From a virus: 64,000 bases of DNA. Of the stretch, positions 2,751-18,375 are shown piece after piece. The stretch lies in the IMG/VR virus record IMGVR_UViG_3300045922_000293, positions 32,001 to 96,000 of that record. One strand, written 5' to 3'. A program made the position numbers and the translations under genes. Below the pieces are notes generated by a model. It was not told the origin of the DNA. It ran no database searches and saw nothing but the letters and a program-made list of their open reading frames with translations. Numbering within the stretch: the stretch's first letter is position 1; each line of letters begins with the position of its first letter.

Positions 2751-3746
2751 GTGATCAGGATGAGGTTTTTACCCGAAGACAGTGAATCTCTGGCGCGTCA
2801 TATTTTGAATAACGGCGCAGAGTATGTGAAGAGCCGTGTACAAGGCGCTGAATATGTGTCTGTAAGGCTTGAAAAGGGTTTGCGCGCCTCCGATCCCCCT
2901 ATTTTGAGATTGGATATTAGCTTAGATGATAAAAGTGAGTGGATTAATAATATTTTTGAGAATTCAAACCTTTTTAAAGTTATATTAAATTCTTATGATG
3001 GGTCACTAGAAGTCTTTTGTAGGGGATATCAAAATTCTGTAAAATTCAGAAAATTACGAGTTAAGACCTTACAAGATGCTGTAAATGAGATTAATGCCTA
3101 CATTGCTCAAATCATCCCTGAGTTAAAGATGAGCAAGCGGATCGCGACCAAGTGCGCTTATATAGATTGGCAGAGCGTAGGAAGATCTTTACAGACGGGG
3201 GATCGTGTGCGAGTGTTCAACTCCGTCGATGGTAGGTTCTCCCCGTGGGAGGGTCATATCACGGCGGTCATGGCGCATTTAGGCATGGTGGATGTGCAGA
3301 CCCCCTTTGGTAATGTCCGTCTCCCCGTTGAAGACGTGACCGTTGTGAGCCGTGATCCTGTGTTAGAGGATACAGGCTATAAGGGGTATGATAACACACG
3401 CAATAAGGATGACCTCACGTTGCAGTACACGCCTGAAAAAGTGAAGACGGCATTGTATTGGAAGGCCAAGGGGCGTAAGTATATGCCGACTAGGTCTGAA
3501 GAGGAGAGTGGTAATTATGTCTGCCCTAAATGCGACAGCCCGTTGAAAAATTCAATTTACAAGAAGCGTACAAAGCTGTTTGTGTGTACAAACAATGAGT
3601 GCAATTTCTGCATCCGCCCCGTGGATATCATCCATGCGGAGACGTGTGATGGAGAGGATAAACCTTTGCTTGATGACACGAATCCGCGATCTCAGGTGTT
3701 GCGTATTGTGAAGGCTTATCTAAGCACGGGGGGATATGTGTCATGA
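2751..3746 (+). CDS. Hypothetical protein with C-terminal zinc ribbon
   Basis: CPKC...CTNNEC motif. ATGA-coupled to the protease gene. The likely start is ATG 2760. Confidence 0.7.
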   Translation: MIRMRFLPEDSESLARHILNNGAEYVKSRVQGAEYVSVRLEKGLRASDPPILRLDISLDDKSEWINNIFENSNLFKVILNSYDGSLEVFCRGYQNSVKFRKLRVKTLQDAVNEINAYIAQIIPELKMSKRIATKCAYIDWQSVGRSLQTGDRVRVFNSVDGRFSPWEGHITAVMAHLGMVDVQTPFGNVRLPVEDVTVVSRDPVLEDTGYKGYDNTRNKDDLTLQYTPEKVKTALYWKAKGRKYMPTRSEEESGNYVCPKCDSPLKNSIYKKRTKLFVCTNNECNFCIRPVDIIHAETCDGEDKPLLDDTNPRSQVLRIVKAYLSTGGYVS

Positions 3747-5233
3747 TACGGTATACAATCGCGAAGGTGTCTACGGTATCCGTGGATAGAGATGTATGGT
3801 CACAATTCAAGAAGGCGCACTCATCCTATTCTACGGGGGTATTCCGTAACAAGCGGACGGCCAAGACCAACAGCTCTAAGGACATCCTCAACCTTTTTGA
3901 TCCTAAGAAGTATATCCTGACACACGCGACAATTATAGCAAGTGTTGACACAGAAGATGTGCCGGGGGTGAAGTTAGGCGAGAACATGTGGGAGGACGGG
4001 CGTAAGATCACCCGTCTATGGTCAGATTACCGTATTAAGAAGGACACAGAGCGTTACATTAACTTTAATAATGATGCATGGGAGCGTCAAAATCTTCTTC
4101 AAACGTTTTGGACATTCATTGGGGGGTACAATTATCAAGAGCACATTCAAGACCCTGAGTTAAGTAAGGGCATTATCTTGGATGCCGTGAGTCGAGATCT
4201 TGGCGACACGGTGTACATTGATATTCTTGTGGCGACGGATCGCTCACATGTTGCGCTTGTGCATGATATTGTCATGAAGAAGATGAAAACGATGTCCATG
4301 GGATGCTCCATTAAGTTTTCAATCTGCACGAAATGTGGGAACATCGCAGCGGATGAAAAAGATATGTGCTCACATATCCGAAGCATGAAGGGCGATACGT
4401 TCAGTGATGCGAACGGAGTTGAGCGTAAGATCGCGGAGCTGTGTGGGCATAGGGAGGTGCCTGAGAGCGTCACATTCTTTGAGGGGTCATGGGTGGAGGT
4501 ACCCGCTTTTGAGGGCGCAGAGGTACGCGCGGTCCTCTACACGCCTGAAGACCTTGATCTGAATGCGGCGGTCCATACCGCACATATCATTCGATTCCCG
4601 TCACAAGTGCCATCCTTTTCTGATTGGACGCAAGCCTTTATAACCTCGCGTGAGGCATCTTTTCGGGATCGTGTAAGTTTTTCTTTTGATGACGATGATG
4701 ATGAAGACGGTGACGGGGATGTGAAGGATGATAAGAATTATTATGAGACGGTTTTAGAAGAGGCTAAAGATCTGGTACAAAATAAGCTCAAGACGGATCT
4801 AAAACGTGAGGTGATGGATAGCCTACGCAAGGATGATGAGAAGACGGAAGCTCCCCTTACCATGGCAGAAGACATGAATGATACGGTCATTGAGTCACGG
4901 CGTCTGGCTCATATTATCAAGGGGATCAAAACGGCTTCTTGCACAAAGGCTGAGATATTTTTAGCCGCCCTCAATCTCTTAGGGAACACCCGCACCGCAT
5001 CGTCATCTCGGCTCCCTATGGAGGCCCGTATTCTCGGTATGTATGCTGTTGCAAAATACAAGAATGCAAACACTTCTTTTTCCAAAAAGTTTCATGGCCT
5101 TTTGACTTTGACCAAACATGCTTCAAATGTGTCTAAGTTTTTAAAGCTCGCTGAAATTCACGCCAAGCGTACTTTAACCCCCTCAGAGCGGGCATATTTA
5201 AGTGATGCATATGTGAAATTGAAGGAATTTTAA
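3743..5233 (+). CDS. Putative prohead (capsid maturation) protease with Zn-finger insertion
   Basis: Motifs NxNNDAW, QEH, SMGC-x5-CxxCGN...CxH and EGSWVEVPA are typical of large-phage HK97-type maturation proteases. Directly upstream of scaffold, decoration and MCP. Confidence 0.7.
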   Translation: MIRYTIAKVSTVSVDRDVWSQFKKAHSSYSTGVFRNKRTAKTNSSKDILNLFDPKKYILTHATIIASVDTEDVPGVKLGENMWEDGRKITRLWSDYRIKKDTERYINFNNDAWERQNLLQTFWTFIGGYNYQEHIQDPELSKGIILDAVSRDLGDTVYIDILVATDRSHVALVHDIVMKKMKTMSMGCSIKFSICTKCGNIAADEKDMCSHIRSMKGDTFSDANGVERKIAELCGHREVPESVTFFEGSWVEVPAFEGAEVRAVLYTPEDLDLNAAVHTAHIIRFPSQVPSFSDWTQAFITSREASFRDRVSFSFDDDDDEDGDGDVKDDKNYYETVLEEAKDLVQNKLKTDLKREVMDSLRKDDEKTEAPLTMAEDMNDTVIESRRLAHIIKGIKTASCTKAEIFLAALNLLGNTRTASSSRLPMEARILGMYAVAKYKNANTSFSKKFHGLLTLTKHASNVSKFLKLAEIHAKRTLTPSERAYLSDAYVKLKEF

Positions 5234-7559: not shown

Positions 7560-8435
7560 ATGTCTAACATCGACAACAAAGTGAAGCAGCAGATCATTGC
7601 AAAGTACATCGGTACTGCGCAAGGTCGTCAGAAGCTGGCAGCGTCCATGACGAAGCCTCTACGTCAACGTCGTGACTATTCTTCAGTCGCCCGTAAGACC
7701 TTCCTCGTGGAGGATCTGCCGGACGGTGCGCTCCCTATCTATGACAAGGACCCCGATGTCGCGGCCTATGTCGTGGGGGAAGAAGGCGAAAGTATCATGA
7801 GCGTGATCAAGCCCCGCCGTGTGATCATCCCCCTGTTTGAGATCGCGTGTCTGCCTGAGATTCCTCTCACGCAAGTTAAGGAGCGCCGCTTTGATCTGAT
7901 TCAGCGTTCACAGGATCTTGGGCGCGCCCAGATTCAGGCGGCTGAGGATGAGCGCAGTTTTGCTATCATGGATGCGGTTGCGGTCAACGGTTTTGACAGC
8001 CTCCCCGGCCAGACAAACCCTGACATTCCCGTTGCGGCTCCCGTCACCTCTTCGATCCTCGCGGATGGTTTTTCCGAGATCGAGAAGCATGACCTCCGTG
8101 TTGCCCGCATTTATATGAATGCGAAGGATTACGCAGATGTCCGTAAGTTCGGCCAAGAGATCCTTGACATCCAGAGCCAAGCAGATCTTCTCAAGACGGG
8201 TCTGCAAGCCACCCTCTGGGGTGCTCAGATCATCGTCAGCCGTCTGGTGCCTATTGGCACCTTGTACATCTGTTGTGACCCTGAGATGTTTGGTCGCATC
8301 CCCGTCCGCACTGAGCTGACCGTCCTCTCCGCGGACGATCCCCGTGCCCGCACGATTGGTTTCAGTATCTTCGAGCAGCTCGGAATCGGCGCGACTAACC
8401 CCCGTGGCCTTCAGCGTTTGATCGTGAGCCGCTGA
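7560..8435 (+). CDS. Major capsid protein (HK97 fold, short)
   Basis: GAGGAG SD, C-ending codon bias, and position after protease/scaffold/decoration. Pattern LFEIA..PEI.L..VK.RRFDLI.R.Q...RAQIQAAED; terminal EQLGIG..NP.G. Confidence 0.8.
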   Translation: MSNIDNKVKQQIIAKYIGTAQGRQKLAASMTKPLRQRRDYSSVARKTFLVEDLPDGALPIYDKDPDVAAYVVGEEGESIMSVIKPRRVIIPLFEIACLPEIPLTQVKERRFDLIQRSQDLGRAQIQAAEDERSFAIMDAVAVNGFDSLPGQTNPDIPVAAPVTSSILADGFSEIEKHDLRVARIYMNAKDYADVRKFGQEILDIQSQADLLKTGLQATLWGAQIIVSRLVPIGTLYICCDPEMFGRIPVRTELTVLSADDPRARTIGFSIFEQLGIGATNPRGLQRLIVSR

Positions 8436-13378: not shown

Positions 13379-13627
13379 ATGTCTATGTCAAAGCGCGTAG
13401 CGCGGTTATATTTGAAGCGTGCTTACGAGGCACGAGGCGCTCTTGAGAAGGTCATCGGCAAAATGGTATCACGCCAATATGGTTTGACGGATCAGCCTCA
13501 GGAATTTTTTGACGATGTGAAGCAGATCGTTTATGATACGCTGGGTACACAAGATATTGATCTATCTGATCCTATGGTGTATGATGATATTCAGCGTGCT
13601 ATTGTTGAAGTGCTTAATCAGGACTGA
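13379..13627 (+). CDS. Small hypothetical protein, possible internal head protein
   Basis: GAGG SD; N-terminal SKRVARLYL motif. Confidence 0.6.
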   Translation: MSMSKRVARLYLKRAYEARGALEKVIGKMVSRQYGLTDQPQEFFDDVKQIVYDTLGTQDIDLSDPMVYDDIQRAIVEVLNQD

Positions 13628-13678
13628 TTCACCTCCTCAAGAGGCGTCCATGGTGTAGAAAAAACCCGAAAGTGTGAT

Positions 13679-13729
13679 ATAAGGGCGTTTAGGTCAGGGG
13701 GAATAATCCCGAATCCTAAGCGCCCTTAT
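13679..13729 (+). promoter_or_regulatory. 15-bp stem hairpin upstream of the IntC gene
   Basis: ataagggcgtttagg pairs with cctaagcgcccttat (one G-U), ending just before the GAGG SD. Confidence 0.5.
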
Positions 13730-13749
13730 TTCGATGAGGTCAAACGATC

Positions 13750-14376
13750 ATGAGTCTTACTAAAGAGCAACGTGACAAGATCAACAAGGCTTTTTGGACA
13801 AAGTCTTTGAAGGTCAGATCCGCGACGAAAGACGGCGTGAAATGGATGCTTGTCAAGGATATCATGCGTCATGAAACACTACACAAGCCCCTTGTAAGGG
13901 TGTCCCTACGTGACGGGCGTCGCGTGACCTGTACACACGATCACAGCCTTATTTCACCGGATCTGACACCTCTCCAAGCCTCAACTGCGAGGGTAGGGGA
14001 TTACATTTTAGCGACCATGCCTGATGGTTTTCTGGGCTCGTGTAGGATTGTGAGTGTAGAATCTGTGAATCCGCACTTCTTCACCTATGATCTTTGTGTG
14101 CCGGGTCCAGAGAATTTCATCTTATCCAATGGGATTGTGGCACACAATTCATACTCCATTGGGGGTATTAGTTTAGATTTGAACAAATCTTCTCAATATG
14201 AAAGTTTGAAGGGGAATGCGGAGCAGCAGCTTGATAAGATGCTTGAGTCTAAGAGCCGCACTGTGAAGATCATGCGTGGCTTGAAGCAGAGTCGCTACGG
14301 AATTGGAGTGAGATCAGCTTTTGGCCCCGCGCTCAGTGGAGGCAACATCACCCCAAGAAAGTACTTAGGATTTTAA
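13750..14376 (+). CDS. Split-intein C-precursor: 133-aa IntC plus 75-aa C-extein of a putative neck/head-tail protein
   Basis: Block B VTCTHDHSL, block F TYDLCVPGPENF and block G GIVAHN|S. IntC spans 13750-14148. No block A at the N-terminus. Confidence 0.85.
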   Translation: MSLTKEQRDKINKAFWTKSLKVRSATKDGVKWMLVKDIMRHETLHKPLVRVSLRDGRRVTCTHDHSLISPDLTPLQASTARVGDYILATMPDGFLGSCRIVSVESVNPHFFTYDLCVPGPENFILSNGIVAHNSYSIGGISLDLNKSSQYESLKGNAEQQLDKMLESKSRTVKIMRGLKQSRYGIGVRSAFGPALSGGNITPRKYLGF

Positions 14377-14385
14377 ACTTTTTAT
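14376..14385 (+). promoter_or_regulatory. Variant late-promoter motif AACTTTTTAT before the IntN gene
   Basis: One mismatch to ATCTTTTWAT, in the 41-bp gap. Confidence 0.35.
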
Positions 14386-14417
14386 GGCATTTCTAACAAA
14401 AAGCAAGGTGTGGGGTC

Positions 14418-15188
14418 ATGTCAGCAGTCTTCGTCAGGGGTAGCGCGATAGGCAGGGGGGATTTAGAGTTGTTTACAGTAGACAACGCGAATTTGCCTGC
14501 GAATGTGTTTGAAATCAGCTACGCCATTTATGATGTGACTACGGGGGTTGAGGTCTTGATAGGGTCAAGTGCCCGCACCCCTATCAATCCCGATGTAGGG
14601 GAATATTACGCCGCGCTTGAAATCCCCGCAAATGCGAGGACAGGCCTTTATCGCATAAGGTGGCGTTTGCGTGAAACCGCGACGGCTACAGAGATCGTGG
14701 TCGTGGAAGAATTCACGGTATTAGAAAATCAAACCGTGAATCCTTTAAGTTTGTATTCCCCTATTACCTTGGACATGGTGAGAAGGCTTCGTATTTTGCT
14801 CCGAGATAACTCTCCCGACAGAAATTATCGGTTCAGACCCCCAACGCATGAAGAGACAATCAATCGTTTTAATCGCGTGTTTGGTTATATTTGGGAGGAT
14901 TATGAGCTGGTGGAGTATATGGAGCGCGGGGTTGACTTTGTGAATCTAAGCCCCCCCGAAACACATTTTAATACAATTGATCTTATGGTACAAGCGAAGC
15001 CTGCGTGGCGTCAAATGATCCTCATGGCGGCGATGGCCCATGCCCTGATGGCCTTGAGTATCAATTGGGTATCCGAAGAGTTTTCGTTGATTGGGAGTGA
15101 AGAGATTGACATAGATGTGGACGGGGAGATCATTCGGTGTAGGCTTGATGATCTCTTTGATGCTGTATATTCACATGAAGATGCTTAA
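14418..15188 (+). CDS. Split-intein N-precursor: 222-aa N-extein of putative neck/head-tail protein plus 34-aa IntN
   Basis: The C-terminal SLIGSEEIDIDVDGEIIRCRLDDLF (from 15084) matches intein block A and the following segment. RRLRILLRD...YELVEYM resembles head-tail adaptors. Confidence 0.8.
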   Translation: MSAVFVRGSAIGRGDLELFTVDNANLPANVFEISYAIYDVTTGVEVLIGSSARTPINPDVGEYYAALEIPANARTGLYRIRWRLRETATATEIVVVEEFTVLENQTVNPLSLYSPITLDMVRRLRILLRDNSPDRNYRFRPPTHEETINRFNRVFGYIWEDYELVEYMERGVDFVNLSPPETHFNTIDLMVQAKPAWRQMILMAAMAHALMALSINWVSEEFSLIGSEEIDIDVDGEIIRCRLDDLFDAVYSHEDA

Positions 15189-15344
15189 ATGAAGGGTTTA
15201 GATCCCCATGCAAAGATCATCCTAGCTAACATGTTCCATATGAAGATGGCCTCTCTTAGCTCCCCCCTGAATTGGCTCAGCCTTCACGTCCCCTCTCCGC
15301 TCCCGTGGTCCCCGCGCGCATTCTTTCTCTCAAGAGTGAGGTAG
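15189..15344 (+). CDS. Possible small ORF (51 aa, MKGLDPHAKIILANMF...)
   Basis: ATG immediately follows the previous stop and the ORF fills the gap before the helicase. No other support. Confidence 0.3.
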   Translation: MKGLDPHAKIILANMFHMKMASLSSPLNWLSLHVPSPLPWSPRAFFLSRVR

Positions 15345-15351
15345 TTGTAAG

Positions 15352-18300
15352 ATGGATAAGAAAAAGAACCCCAATTTTGATAAAACCTTGTTGCTTCAAT
15401 TAAGGAGGGCGTTTGGGCCTAGATTCATGCCTTTCTTTGAAATGTACACCAATCTTTATATAATGGGCACGGGCGTAACGCCTGTGCCTGAGAATTTACT
15501 ACAAGAGATGCGTGGCACGTTTAGAAGGCTATCGCGCATGATCGAGAGTGAGATCGCGCGAGACGCAATTCTTGATAGTATTCAACAGATGGGACCTTCT
15601 CTCAAACGTCTTCAGCAGGGACAAGATTTCCCCATGATTTGGCGCACGGTATCACGTCAAATGGGGGCTATTATCTCTGAGGTGGCAAAAGATCGCGGTA
15701 TTTATGTCAAGCCCCGTCGCATCCACCCAGATGGTTGGGTACGTTATCAGCGCATGACAAAAGAGGAGACGTCGCTTGAAAAGCTCAAGGATAGTGATCC
15801 CGAAGCCTATGCGCGTGTTCTTGAGTTGCGTAAATTGCAAAAGGCGATTGCAGAGCAGATTAAGGCCAAGATTGAGGATTCGGGCCTTGTTCCCGTCCGC
15901 AAAAAATATTTAGGCAAGGTCGTTTGGGCCGCTGTGACACCTCAAGGTGAAGAGTTGGTGTACGATGATGACGGCGATGTCCTCCCCGTTGAAGCCTTTC
16001 TGGAGAAGCGTGAGGGTCACCTCAAGAGTATAAAGGCACTGAGCCGCACCGTGAAGGTAGACCTTGAGGATATGCGTTCTATGGATGATGCCGCCTTAGA
16101 GGCTTTAGAGGGTGAGGTCGTGTACACCGCGCTGACGGATGACAAGGCGAAGCAGAACGCGTTGACCCGTATTTATCCTGTCAAAGAGGTAGGATCGCGT
16201 AAGATGATCGTGGAAGGTCGTTTCAAGGGCATTTACCTAGATGAGATGATTAATGTTGTAGGCCGTCAGATTGAGGGTGTAGCCTATGATTTCGATCCCA
16301 AGACGGGTATCCCCCGCGCCCTGGAGTCGAGGGCTTCTGGTCAGCTTGAGATTAGTACGGTCAAGGAGCCTTATGTGACAGTGGGCGATGATGGTAGGCT
16401 CTTTTTGAAGCTCCCCAGCACGCATGAATTCTCTGCCCTCCGTAAGCGCATGACCGAATTGGCCCGTATCAATAGTGGTGTAGAGAAGGTTGCGGGCGTT
16501 CGCAGCTCTCAATTTTTCTTTGAGCCCAAAGATCTAGCCAGCGTGCGTGAGGCTTTGGGGTCTATGGCTTTGAGTACATCTGCGGCGGAGGCGGTGGACC
16601 GTTATTTCCGAACTATTGCACGTCATGAGCTCGCGACAACGGAGGAGAATCTTGCGCGATTTAGTGCAGAGCGTTTGGGTGGTTTTAAAAAGGGTCGTGA
16701 CCTGTATAGCGTTCAAAAGAAGGCTCTCGCTTGGGCTGCCGCCCGTCAGGGATCCGGCGTTTTAGCTTTAGGGACTGGGGTGGGGAAGACAAGCTGCGGG
16801 ATCGCTGCTTTTAAAAGTGCAATGAACGATCAGGAGGAGATGCAAGAGCCCTTTAGGGGCTTGTATGTGTGCCCTACAACGTTGACAGGCAACCTTCCAT
16901 CTGAAGCCTATCAGTTCATGGAGGACCCCAAAGAGTTTCTTGAAAATATTGATGTGTTGAGCTATACACAATTCACCAAGGCAGTCAAGAAAGACCCTAA
17001 CTTTATGCAACGCTATACGATCGTCATTTTTGACGAAGCACAGGAGTTGTCTGGGGGAAGTTCTGAGGCGGCGAAAGCCGCCAGCCGCCCTCACCCTCGT
17101 AAGCTGTTCATGACGGCCTCGCCGATGGAGCGCCGCCCCGCAGAGGTCTACACGTTGGCGGCTTTGGCAAATAATGAGGACGTCACGAGTAAGGAGTTTA
17201 GGCGTAATCGCAGGCTGTTCGAGGCGCGCTTTTGTGAGGAGATCGGCGGACGTTTTGTGTCCGTGAAAAATGATCCTGTGACGCAGAATGATATGCGCAC
17301 ATGGGTACGTCAAAACATCTTCCATACAGATAAGGCACAGGTTGAGGAGTATGTGCTCCCTGATGTTGTTAGAGGCAATACTTCGATTCACATGCACCCT
17401 GATGTGCAGATCGCGTATCGTGAGGTCACATCTAAGATCCGCCTTCATATGCAAGGCCTTGTGGAGAAGTTTAGGGATCAGAAAAGTACCGTGAGATCCC
17501 GTGATAAGATCGTAACTTCTGCCCGCACGAAGTTGGGTCCTGAGTTCAAGAAACTCATGCTTCTTGCGAATCTACCTGATAAAGTCATCCCTGGCGTTCC
17601 GAATCCAAAGATTCAACAGTCAATCCGAATCGTAGAAGAGCGGATTGAGAAGAGTGATCGTGTGATCTTTTTCACCGATCTTCCTGAAATGGCGGAGGAG
17701 AATGCCAAGCGTCTTAGTATGGAGTACCCGGGTACGCTCCATGCGTGCTGTCTCTCAAGCAAGATCTATCTCTATCGTAATGGTGAGATTGATCAGACGT
17801 TTAGGAAAAAAGCCTATAAGTCAAGCACCCGATCCTATGCGGCGGATGAATGGCAAATGTATGTGATGCATGAATACATCAAGCCTAACACGTTTGATGT
17901 GCTTACCGCTAGCCTTACGGCGTCTTATGCGAAGGGTCATAATTTACAGGAGTTCACCACGATCGTTCACCTTGATCGGGATTCTTGGAATGCTGAAATG
18001 ATGCAACAGCGTGAGGCTCGTAGCTGGCGTCAGGGCCAAAAAACATCAGTGGACTGCATCACCCTTGATGTGGTATATAGTGAGACGGCGGATGATTATG
18101 ATCGCACACTGGATGAGATCATGCGATTCAGTCAGGAGATGGAGGAGCAGTTGTTTAATGATATTATCGTCGCAAGTCAGACCCAAGCGCTTGGTGAAGA
18201 GTATTTCACGATGGAGCAGGAGACGACTACGAAGTATCAGGCGCAGCGCAAGATCATGGAGATGTCACTTTCCCCGTATGCGACGAATCATGCTAGGGCC

Positions 18301-18375
18301 GTGGAGGATTCTAACAACGGGGCCATGGTAGAGGAGGAGGATTTCACGGATCTTAACTTTCCTTTATTTGCCTAA
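15352..18375 (+). CDS. SF2/SNF2-like helicase with long N-terminal extension
   Basis: YSVQ (Q motif), GTGVGKT, FDEAQ, MTASP, GHNLQ, WN...QREARSWRQGQ. Confidence 0.85.
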   Translation: MDKKKNPNFDKTLLLQLRRAFGPRFMPFFEMYTNLYIMGTGVTPVPENLLQEMRGTFRRLSRMIESEIARDAILDSIQQMGPSLKRLQQGQDFPMIWRTVSRQMGAIISEVAKDRGIYVKPRRIHPDGWVRYQRMTKEETSLEKLKDSDPEAYARVLELRKLQKAIAEQIKAKIEDSGLVPVRKKYLGKVVWAAVTPQGEELVYDDDGDVLPVEAFLEKREGHLKSIKALSRTVKVDLEDMRSMDDAALEALEGEVVYTALTDDKAKQNALTRIYPVKEVGSRKMIVEGRFKGIYLDEMINVVGRQIEGVAYDFDPKTGIPRALESRASGQLEISTVKEPYVTVGDDGRLFLKLPSTHEFSALRKRMTELARINSGVEKVAGVRSSQFFFEPKDLASVREALGSMALSTSAAEAVDRYFRTIARHELATTEENLARFSAERLGGFKKGRDLYSVQKKALAWAAARQGSGVLALGTGVGKTSCGIAAFKSAMNDQEEMQEPFRGLYVCPTTLTGNLPSEAYQFMEDPKEFLENIDVLSYTQFTKAVKKDPNFMQRYTIVIFDEAQELSGGSSEAAKAASRPHPRKLFMTASPMERRPAEVYTLAALANNEDVTSKEFRRNRRLFEARFCEEIGGRFVSVKNDPVTQNDMRTWVRQNIFHTDKAQVEEYVLPDVVRGNTSIHMHPDVQIAYREVTSKIRLHMQGLVEKFRDQKSTVRSRDKIVTSARTKLGPEFKKLMLLANLPDKVIPGVPNPKIQQSIRIVEERIEKSDRVIFFTDLPEMAEENAKRLSMEYPGTLHACCLSSKIYLYRNGEIDQTFRKKAYKSSTRSYAADEWQMYVMHEYIKPNTFDVLTASLTASYAKGHNLQEFTTIVHLDRDSWNAEMMQQREARSWRQGQKTSVDCITLDVVYSETADDYDRTLDEIMRFSQEMEEQLFNDIIVASQTQALGEEYFTMEQETTTKYQAQRKIMEMSLSPYATNHARAVEDSNNGAMVEEEDFTDLNFPLFA

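Follow-up and report, generated by a model that had tools for sequence, protein, structure and literature searches.

Exchanged Halves of a Predicted Phage Head-to-Tail Adaptor Gene Carrying an Atypically Split Ser1/Ser+1 Intein

Results

Two Adjacent Genes with the C-Terminal Half First

The stretch of DNA analyzed here (hereafter the window) comprises 64,000 nucleotides (nt), bases 32001–96000 of the 113,160-base-pair (bp) IMG/VR virus record IMGVR_UViG_3300045922_000293. The record is estimated by CheckV to be ~25% complete, which, at this length, identifies its source as a huge phage. Two neighboring open reading frames (ORFs) on the plus strand of the window encode the two halves of a predicted head-to-tail adaptor, each joined to one piece of an intein, with the C-terminal half placed first. 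ORF A (13750–14376, 208 amino acids (aa), with its own ATG at 13750) consists of the 133-aa C-terminal intein piece (IntC) followed by 75 aa of the host protein (the C-extein). ORF B (14418–15188, 256 aa, stop codon at 15186–15188) consists of 222 aa of the host protein (the N-extein) followed by the 34-aa N-terminal intein piece (IntN). We consider it probable that the two genes are swapped halves of a single adaptor gene that was cut at residues 222/223 by an atypically split class-1 Ser1/Ser+1 intein, that they descend from a fractured gene, and that the adaptor is restored by trans-splicing.

The boundaries of the four parts were drawn from several lines of comparison. IntC (ORF A residues 1–133, 13750..14148, plus strand) was delimited by its match to Pfam PF14890, by family-invariant columns, by its collinearity with contiguous inteins and by profile matches to inteins in the PDB. 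The C-extein starts at Ser+1 (SYSIGGISLD...), runs with its stop codon over 14149..14376 of the same strand and corresponds to residues 223–297 of uninterrupted adaptor homologs. A 41-bp spacer at 14377..14417 (plus strand) leads from the C-half gene to the N-half gene; it contains no endonuclease gene and carries a G-rich, Shine-Dalgarno-like run just 5' of the ATG of ORF B. The N-extein, ending in ...INWVSEEF, covers 14418..15083 (plus strand) and is predicted to hold an immunoglobulin (Ig)-like beta-sandwich (~residues 1–102) and a helical adaptor domain. IntN, which begins at Ser1, contains only block A, has a net charge of −9 and occupies 15084..15188 (plus strand) including the stop codon; it was placed by the invariance of Ser223, by alignment with the N-termini of contiguous inteins and by co-folding. 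Neither ORF is truncated or interrupted by a frameshift or an internal stop. Each of the four parts is single-copy, and no second copy of any part was found in the whole 113-kb record. A first-pass annotation, made from the sequence alone, had described both ORFs, their division into halves and the 41-bp spacer exactly as they are found.

Uninterrupted Homologs Across the Junction

When the 222-aa N-extein was used as a query, 575 homologs were recovered, mostly 296–297 aa long. The closest, P0002, is an uninterrupted protein of 297 aa that is 85–87% identical to the N-extein, and its residues 216–296 are 80% identical to the C-extein (ORF A residues 134–208). It crosses the predicted junction as ...INWVSEEFSYSIGGISLDISK..., with EEF running straight into SYSIGG. 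Because this match holds residue for residue across the junction, the predicted 222 + 75 = 297-aa product is a real protein in relatives. The product and its junction, INWVSEEF/SYSIGGISLD, had been proposed in the first-pass annotation along with a search for contiguous homologs across EEF/SYSIGG; that search succeeded (closest P0002, 87% identical), and uninterrupted homologs of 296–297 aa agree with the proposal at every residue.

The sequence EEFSYSIGG is uninterrupted in P0393 (297 aa) and P0391 (299 aa) as well as in P0002. The +1 residue of most intein-free alleles is Asp (DEF-D-YSIGG), whereas the sub-clade of the window keeps Ser at this position even when intein-free, as these three proteins do. 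Furthermore, the uninterrupted P0391 and the split N-half P0004 fall into one 90%-identity cluster, so the gain or loss of the intein must be recent.

An Atypically Split Class-1 Intein

ORF A residues 1–133 matched Pfam PF14890, Intein_splicing (E 1.3e-10, 41.7 bits), above the cut-off of 35.8 bits; a check against intein profiles had been suggested in the first-pass annotation. ORF B had no Pfam match. ORF A contains block B (T62-H63-D64-H65), D114-L115 as block F, and H132-N133 as block G, with Ser134 as the next residue; it lacks block A, in agreement with the original description. Residues H41, D64, H65, S66, D114, L115, A131, H132 and N133 are invariant among 22 aligned C-halves, in which T62 and the +1 residue Ser134 are at least 90% conserved, with Thr as the alternative to Ser134. 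The missing block A lies in ORF B. Its Ser1 is Ser223, directly after EEF, which is invariant in 13 N-halves and aligns with Ser1 of 13 contiguous inteins. The 12 other N-halves (247–261 aa) likewise pass from EEF into S-[LIV]-x-[GP]... and end in tails of 31–36 aa with net charges of −4 to −10. Public data hold more than 200 homologous C-halves of ~208 aa with PF14890 and dozens of N-halves with a similar tail.

Taken together, the two ORFs carry the features of a class-1 intein, namely the block A nucleophile, the TxxH of block B, and His-Asn of blocks F/G followed by Ser+1. They are distributed over separate ORFs in the atypical manner: block A alone is found in the short IntN, and blocks B, F and G are in the long IntC. 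Thirteen contiguous inteins, which occupy this site in homologous genes, can be aligned collinearly with the joined IntN and IntC from one end to the other. This agreement and the number of homologous halves in public data go well beyond what chance would give. The split point, identical to that of 31 split relatives, coincides with a loop whose length ranges from 0 to ~50 residues among the contiguous forms. An Arg/Lys-His motif termed NX is a signature of Ser1/Ser+1 inteins (Pasch et al. 2023, PMC10189870); it is present as R40-H41 in ORF A, 5' of block B, and residues 38–41 lie within the IntN interface predicted by co-folding. The intein is not cysteine-less, since it contains four Cys (one in IntN, three in IntC), and only its junction nucleophiles are Ser. 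A profile of the C-halves matched the solved inteins PI-PkoII (4.9e-15), Pho CDC21, Pho RadA and Mja TFIIB, and its match to PolB16 was remote (E 4.8e-5). Judged by these comparisons, the intein belongs to a class-1 lineage that is not close to any characterized split intein.

Co-folding was carried out with IntC and IntN, each extended by five extein residues, and with three controls. The IntC/IntN pair gave an ipSAE of 0.73 versus 0.02 for the best control, with at least 88% of contacts agreeing between runs and a partner pLDDT (predicted local distance difference test) of at least 75. Of 80 solved complexes, 58 attained a value of 0.73, as did 2 of 110 mismatched pairs; because solved structures include split inteins in good number, the score is read as likeness to a split intein and not as binding. 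Along with the collinearity described above, this result upholds the suggestion that the 34-aa tail completes the Hint fold. The charges of the pair were also counted. IntN contains 11 D/E and 2 K/R, and the first 60 residues of IntC contain 16 K/R and 6 D/E, exactly as first noted. However, the net charge of these 60 residues ranges from −1 to +10 across 22 relatives, so the basic IntC N-terminus is specific to this copy (+10 against −9 for IntN), and charge complementarity is not a general rule in the family.

The Host Protein Is a Predicted Head-to-Tail Adaptor

The split pair sits in the head module of the phage, downstream of a prohead protease-like gene (3743–5230) and a major head protein gene (7560–8432; phrog_2522, E 5e-48). 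Residues 160–256 of P0002, which span the junction, matched PHROG 17327 (phrog_17327), "head-tail connector protein", with an E of 1.7e-5. An AlphaFold2 model of the extein (mean pLDDT 80), for which 48 intein-free homologs were used, consists of an N-terminal beta-sandwich (1–102), a helical domain, a beta-hairpin (224–231) directly after the intein insertion site, and a long helix (235–258). Using VIA-align, model residues 115–270 matched adaptor chains from nine portal-tail complexes of phages as well as T4 gp13/gp14, with Z of 9.9–11.0 and a root-mean-square deviation of 2.2–4.3 Å over 96–115 residues, and residues 1–105 matched macroglobulin and Ig-like domains. Foldseek against the PDB returned no clear adaptor match, its results being dominated by the N-terminal Ig-like domain, and the matches in BFVD were phage proteins without a name, including gp165 of Bacillus phage G. 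The first-pass annotation had called this a virion neck gene. That assignment is supported because the VIA-align matches agree in function and fit both the PHROG match and the genomic position, and the host gene is consequently treated as a predicted head-to-tail adaptor or neck protein.

The adaptors of Pa223, GP4, A4, SU10, KHP30 and VP1, the Mu neck subunit and T4 gp13/gp14 (PDB 9lu4) share with the model the helical domain, the beta-hairpin and the long helix that follows it. In comparison with these solved adaptors, the window protein is predicted to have an additional Ig/macroglobulin-like domain at its N-terminus. Its sequence showed no significant similarity to theirs, and the literature searched contained no report of an intein in any of them.

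A small paralog of the Ig-like domain (~105–112 aa, 25–35% identical) lies just upstream of the adaptor gene in many relatives (for example L139:5001–5339, L147:1140–1457 and L041:5001–5306). The window has no such paralog, and an unrelated 82-aa ORF (13379–13627) stands in its place. Between this ORF and ORF A, a 122-bp non-coding stretch contains an imperfect hairpin (13676..13732, plus strand), an inverted repeat with 18-nt arms that are 89% complementary and a 21-nt loop, which may be an RNA structure or a terminator for the preceding genes.

Layouts of the Adaptor Gene in Relatives

From IMG/VR and JGI metagenomes, 232 related loci were collected, and all 178 that remained distinct after duplicate removal were classified; a scan of genome contigs yielded only two loci, both intein-free. 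The adaptor site was intein-free in 114 of the 178 loci and held a contiguous intein in 19. The order N-half, endonuclease ORF of 0.9–1.1 kb, C-half, as in a fractured gene, was found in 29 loci and is absent from the window. Two loci (L178:4564–6624 and L191:5136–6672) carried a split without an endonuclease, N-half then C-half, with a spacer of 90–120 nt, and 14 showed an N-half only. None (0/178) had the C-half upstream of the N-half, making this order unique to the window among ~64 intein-bearing relatives. The C-half-first, endonuclease-free layout reported initially is real in the contig and shared by none of these ~64 relatives.

The ORF in the ~1-kb gap of the fractured relatives is Vsr-like, with a VDGCYWHGC motif and a DUF559 match (E 7e-7). 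No similarity to these endonucleases was detected anywhere in the 113-kb record. Most of the 14 loci with an N-half only stop at a contig end; in L095 the N-half is followed by a Vsr-like endonuclease ORF and an HNH ORF, and in L139 and L147 by more than 3 kb of unrelated genes. Two nearly identical phages with almost the same intein differ in layout, endonuclease-split in L008:4992–7327 and contiguous in L188:5206–6606. The endonuclease gene therefore enters or leaves the intein loop on short time scales, and the two loci together make a natural comparison of an intein before and after endonuclease-driven splitting. In a tree of IntC sequences, the window grouped with P0271 and P0272 (support 97/94). 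The tree interleaved contiguous and split forms and was rejected as a guide to the ancestral layout.

Further Intein Sites in Relatives and in the Same Record

The adaptor genes of relatives have a second intein site, which lies at window residues 131/132, between LLRDN and SPDRNY, and is empty in the window. It is occupied in L168:2982–5089, L186:2905–5066, L188:3851–6606, L201:4000–6249 and L191:4556–5900 by an atypically split Cys1/Ser+1 intein with an IntN of ~35 aa (CVGEE...), the halves of which are usually separated by a TnsA-like endonuclease ORF (PF08722, 1.2e-5). With two different split inteins in one adaptor gene, some phages encode the adaptor in three pieces. A third site near the adaptor C-terminus holds a contiguous intein ending in ...SHN, followed by SGRGVLSPRKFVGL (L227:2363–3739). 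With up to three sites in relatives, the adaptor gene looks like an intein hotspot. The record of the window contains another intein outside the window (G000:C1:108022–111492; L001), a contiguous Cys1/Ser+1 mini-intein (...QAAK/CVVG...FINHN/SANF...) inserted in a 1157-aa ORF that resembles family-A DNA polymerases.

Discussion

Proposed Mechanism and Origin

Under the proposed mechanism, ORF A would be translated into IntC (133 aa) joined to the C-extein (75 aa) and ORF B into the N-extein (222 aa) joined to IntN (34 aa), the two halves presumably being co-transcribed. The acidic IntN tail would dock on IntC and complete the Hint fold, and oxyester-based class-1 trans-splicing would then join EEF to SYSIGG, giving an adaptor of 297 aa, which in intein-free relatives is encoded as such. 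Trans-splicing is indifferent to gene order, as the dispersed halves of DnaE and Neq PolB show. One consequence of the swap, though, is that the gene cannot be made continuous again by a simple deletion. The ancestor was most likely a fractured gene of the type common in relatives (N-half, Vsr/DUF559-like homing endonuclease gene, C-half). Its endonuclease gene would have been lost, with the endonuclease-free N-then-C alleles of L178 and L191 as plausible intermediates, and the halves would have been exchanged afterwards. If, for example, the halves were duplicated in tandem and the outer half-copies then lost, exactly the order seen in the window would result.

Weighing of Alternative Explanations

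Several points weigh against this reading. The C-before-N order is known from one metagenomic contig, and the loci compared leave out those of P0271 and P0272, the closest C-halves to that of the window. As the record is ~25% complete, an uninterrupted second copy could lie elsewhere in the genome. The adaptor-fold Z scores of 10–11 are moderate for a mostly helical domain, for which, according to the warning of the tool, values under ~13 can reflect a common arrangement. In addition, much C-terminal cleavage occurs in some Ser1 split inteins (PMC10189870).

The order itself could be an assembly artefact, the contig having mis-ordered two segments that truly run N-half then C-half, with or without an endonuclease gene. 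The layout does come from a single contig (P0001 and P0270 each have one member, on one contig), the halves run N-then-C in 31 of the 31 related split loci where both were seen, and populations that mix intein-free and intein-bearing alleles can tangle assembly graphs. Such a mixture of intein-free and fractured alleles, however, gives an assembly graph no edges that link upstream DNA with IntC, the C-extein with the N-extein or IntN with downstream DNA. Three false joins would be required, and each of the three junctions created by the swap is a unique spacer (122, 41 and 163 bp, at 13628–13749, 14377–14417 and 15189–15351) in which no direct repeat >18 nt was found. The ribosome-binding-like G-run of ORF B is retained in the 41-bp spacer. 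The flanks also keep the synteny and orientation of the family on both sides, with o10997-o11389-o12127-o12801 upstream and o19359 downstream. Conserved flanks, junctions without repeats and the lack of an endonuclease remnant therefore make misassembly improbable.

Alternatively, the two ORFs could be the relic of a rearranged, disrupted gene while a working adaptor is encoded in the unassembled ~75% of the genome. The low completeness of the record allows for this, and the locus has been remodeled beyond the swap: a SNF2/DEAD-type helicase gene of 1007 aa (15352–18375) is the next gene after the N-half gene, within the structural module, and no counterpart was present at that position in the 80 related loci compared. 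We regard a relic as very improbable all the same, as the two full-length ORFs show neither frameshifts nor stops, have lost none of Ser1, T62/H65, D114, H132-N133, Ser+1 or the extein residues invariant in the family, and occupy the conserved position of the single adaptor gene of relatives. Moreover, the exteins are 80–87% identical to the intein-free homolog, whereas the intein is ~60–67% identical to its nearest kin, a pattern expected under purifying selection on the exteins. There is likewise only a small chance that the halves associate without being ligated, as a non-covalent two-chain adaptor or with C-terminal cleavage as the only reaction. High C-cleavage in atypically split Ser1 inteins (PMC10189870) and the +10/−9 charge pairing, which would favor tight association whatever the chemistry, speak for this. 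Nevertheless, the family conserves every residue that the four splicing steps require, and uninterrupted homologs are one chain with a transition from helix to beta-hairpin at the junction. An unspliced complex would also leave a 167-aa Hint domain in the adaptor ring.

If the halves are joined by trans-splicing, as we favor, the swap could have made splicing a fixed and obligatory step in virion assembly, and the C-first order could possibly have been selected; we hold this extension doubtful. With no endonuclease gene and with the C-half first, an uninterrupted gene could not be restored by any single deletion, and the phage would be locked into trans-splicing. This would set the window apart from its close relatives, which gain and lose the intein freely. 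Selection on the order might act if the large IntC, made first from a shared mRNA, captured the short acidic IntN as it left the ribosome, and the unusually strong +10/−9 charge pairing would fit adaptation to a C-first order.

Significance and Comparison with Known Systems

Contiguous, endonuclease-split, endonuclease-free and swapped forms of one intein provide a series for studying the origin of split inteins. The family is also a large natural set (>200 C-halves) of atypically split Ser1/Ser+1 inteins with an N-piece of 31–36 aa, and a source for new cysteine-independent ligation tools. The swapped layout is a natural example of a permuted gene for which repair is possible only at the protein level, and it may entail an irreversible dependence on splicing. 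No description of this adaptor intein family was found in the literature searched, and neither a head-tail adaptor with an intein nor split-intein halves that lie adjacent on one strand in C-before-N order without an endonuclease were reported there. GOS-TerL, AceL-TerL and VidaL are inteins split in the atypical way, their IntN being short, with block A alone, and their IntC long. Published atypical Int-N pieces are 15–25 aa long (PMC12707363), as opposed to 31–36 aa in the adaptor family. Atypical split sites, Ser1/Ser+1 split inteins and fractured genes have been published already (PMC12707363, PMC10189870, PMC2677866), and what is novel is the layout and the host gene, not the split site or the Ser1/Ser+1 chemistry.

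PolB16 OarG (PMC10189870) resembles the adaptor intein in its short, block-A-only IntN and long IntC, its Ser1/Ser+1 oxyester chemistry, its Arg-His motif NX and its origin in a metagenomic phage. The two differ in host gene and are only remotely similar in sequence, the closest solved inteins to the adaptor family being archaeal.

The fractured genes described in environmental phages (Dassa, London, Stoddard, Schueler-Furman and Pietrokovski 2009, PMC2677866) offer a further parallel. In both systems, a phage gene is cut by a split intein, a free-standing Vsr-like (DUF559) endonuclease gene lies between the halves (here, in the relatives), and contiguous, split and intein-free alleles coexist. 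The window departs from them in having its C-half before its N-half and no endonuclease gene, and the relatives' endonuclease gene stands after block A, in contrast to the usual site before block F. The hosts of fractured genes are replication, repair and packaging enzymes (gp41, IMPDH, DnaE, NrdA/J, ligase, terminase; PMC2677866). With a predicted virion adaptor as host, the intein in the window extends the known phage niche beyond replication and packaging enzymes.

The halves of the split inteins in cyanobacterial DnaE and Nanoarchaeum PolB are dispersed, and an N-half need neither precede nor adjoin its C-half. Relatives L139 and L147, which have no C-half within more than 3 kb after the N-half, resemble these systems. 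Unlike such dispersed halves, those of the window lie 41 bp apart on the same strand and are exchanged within an otherwise conserved synteny.

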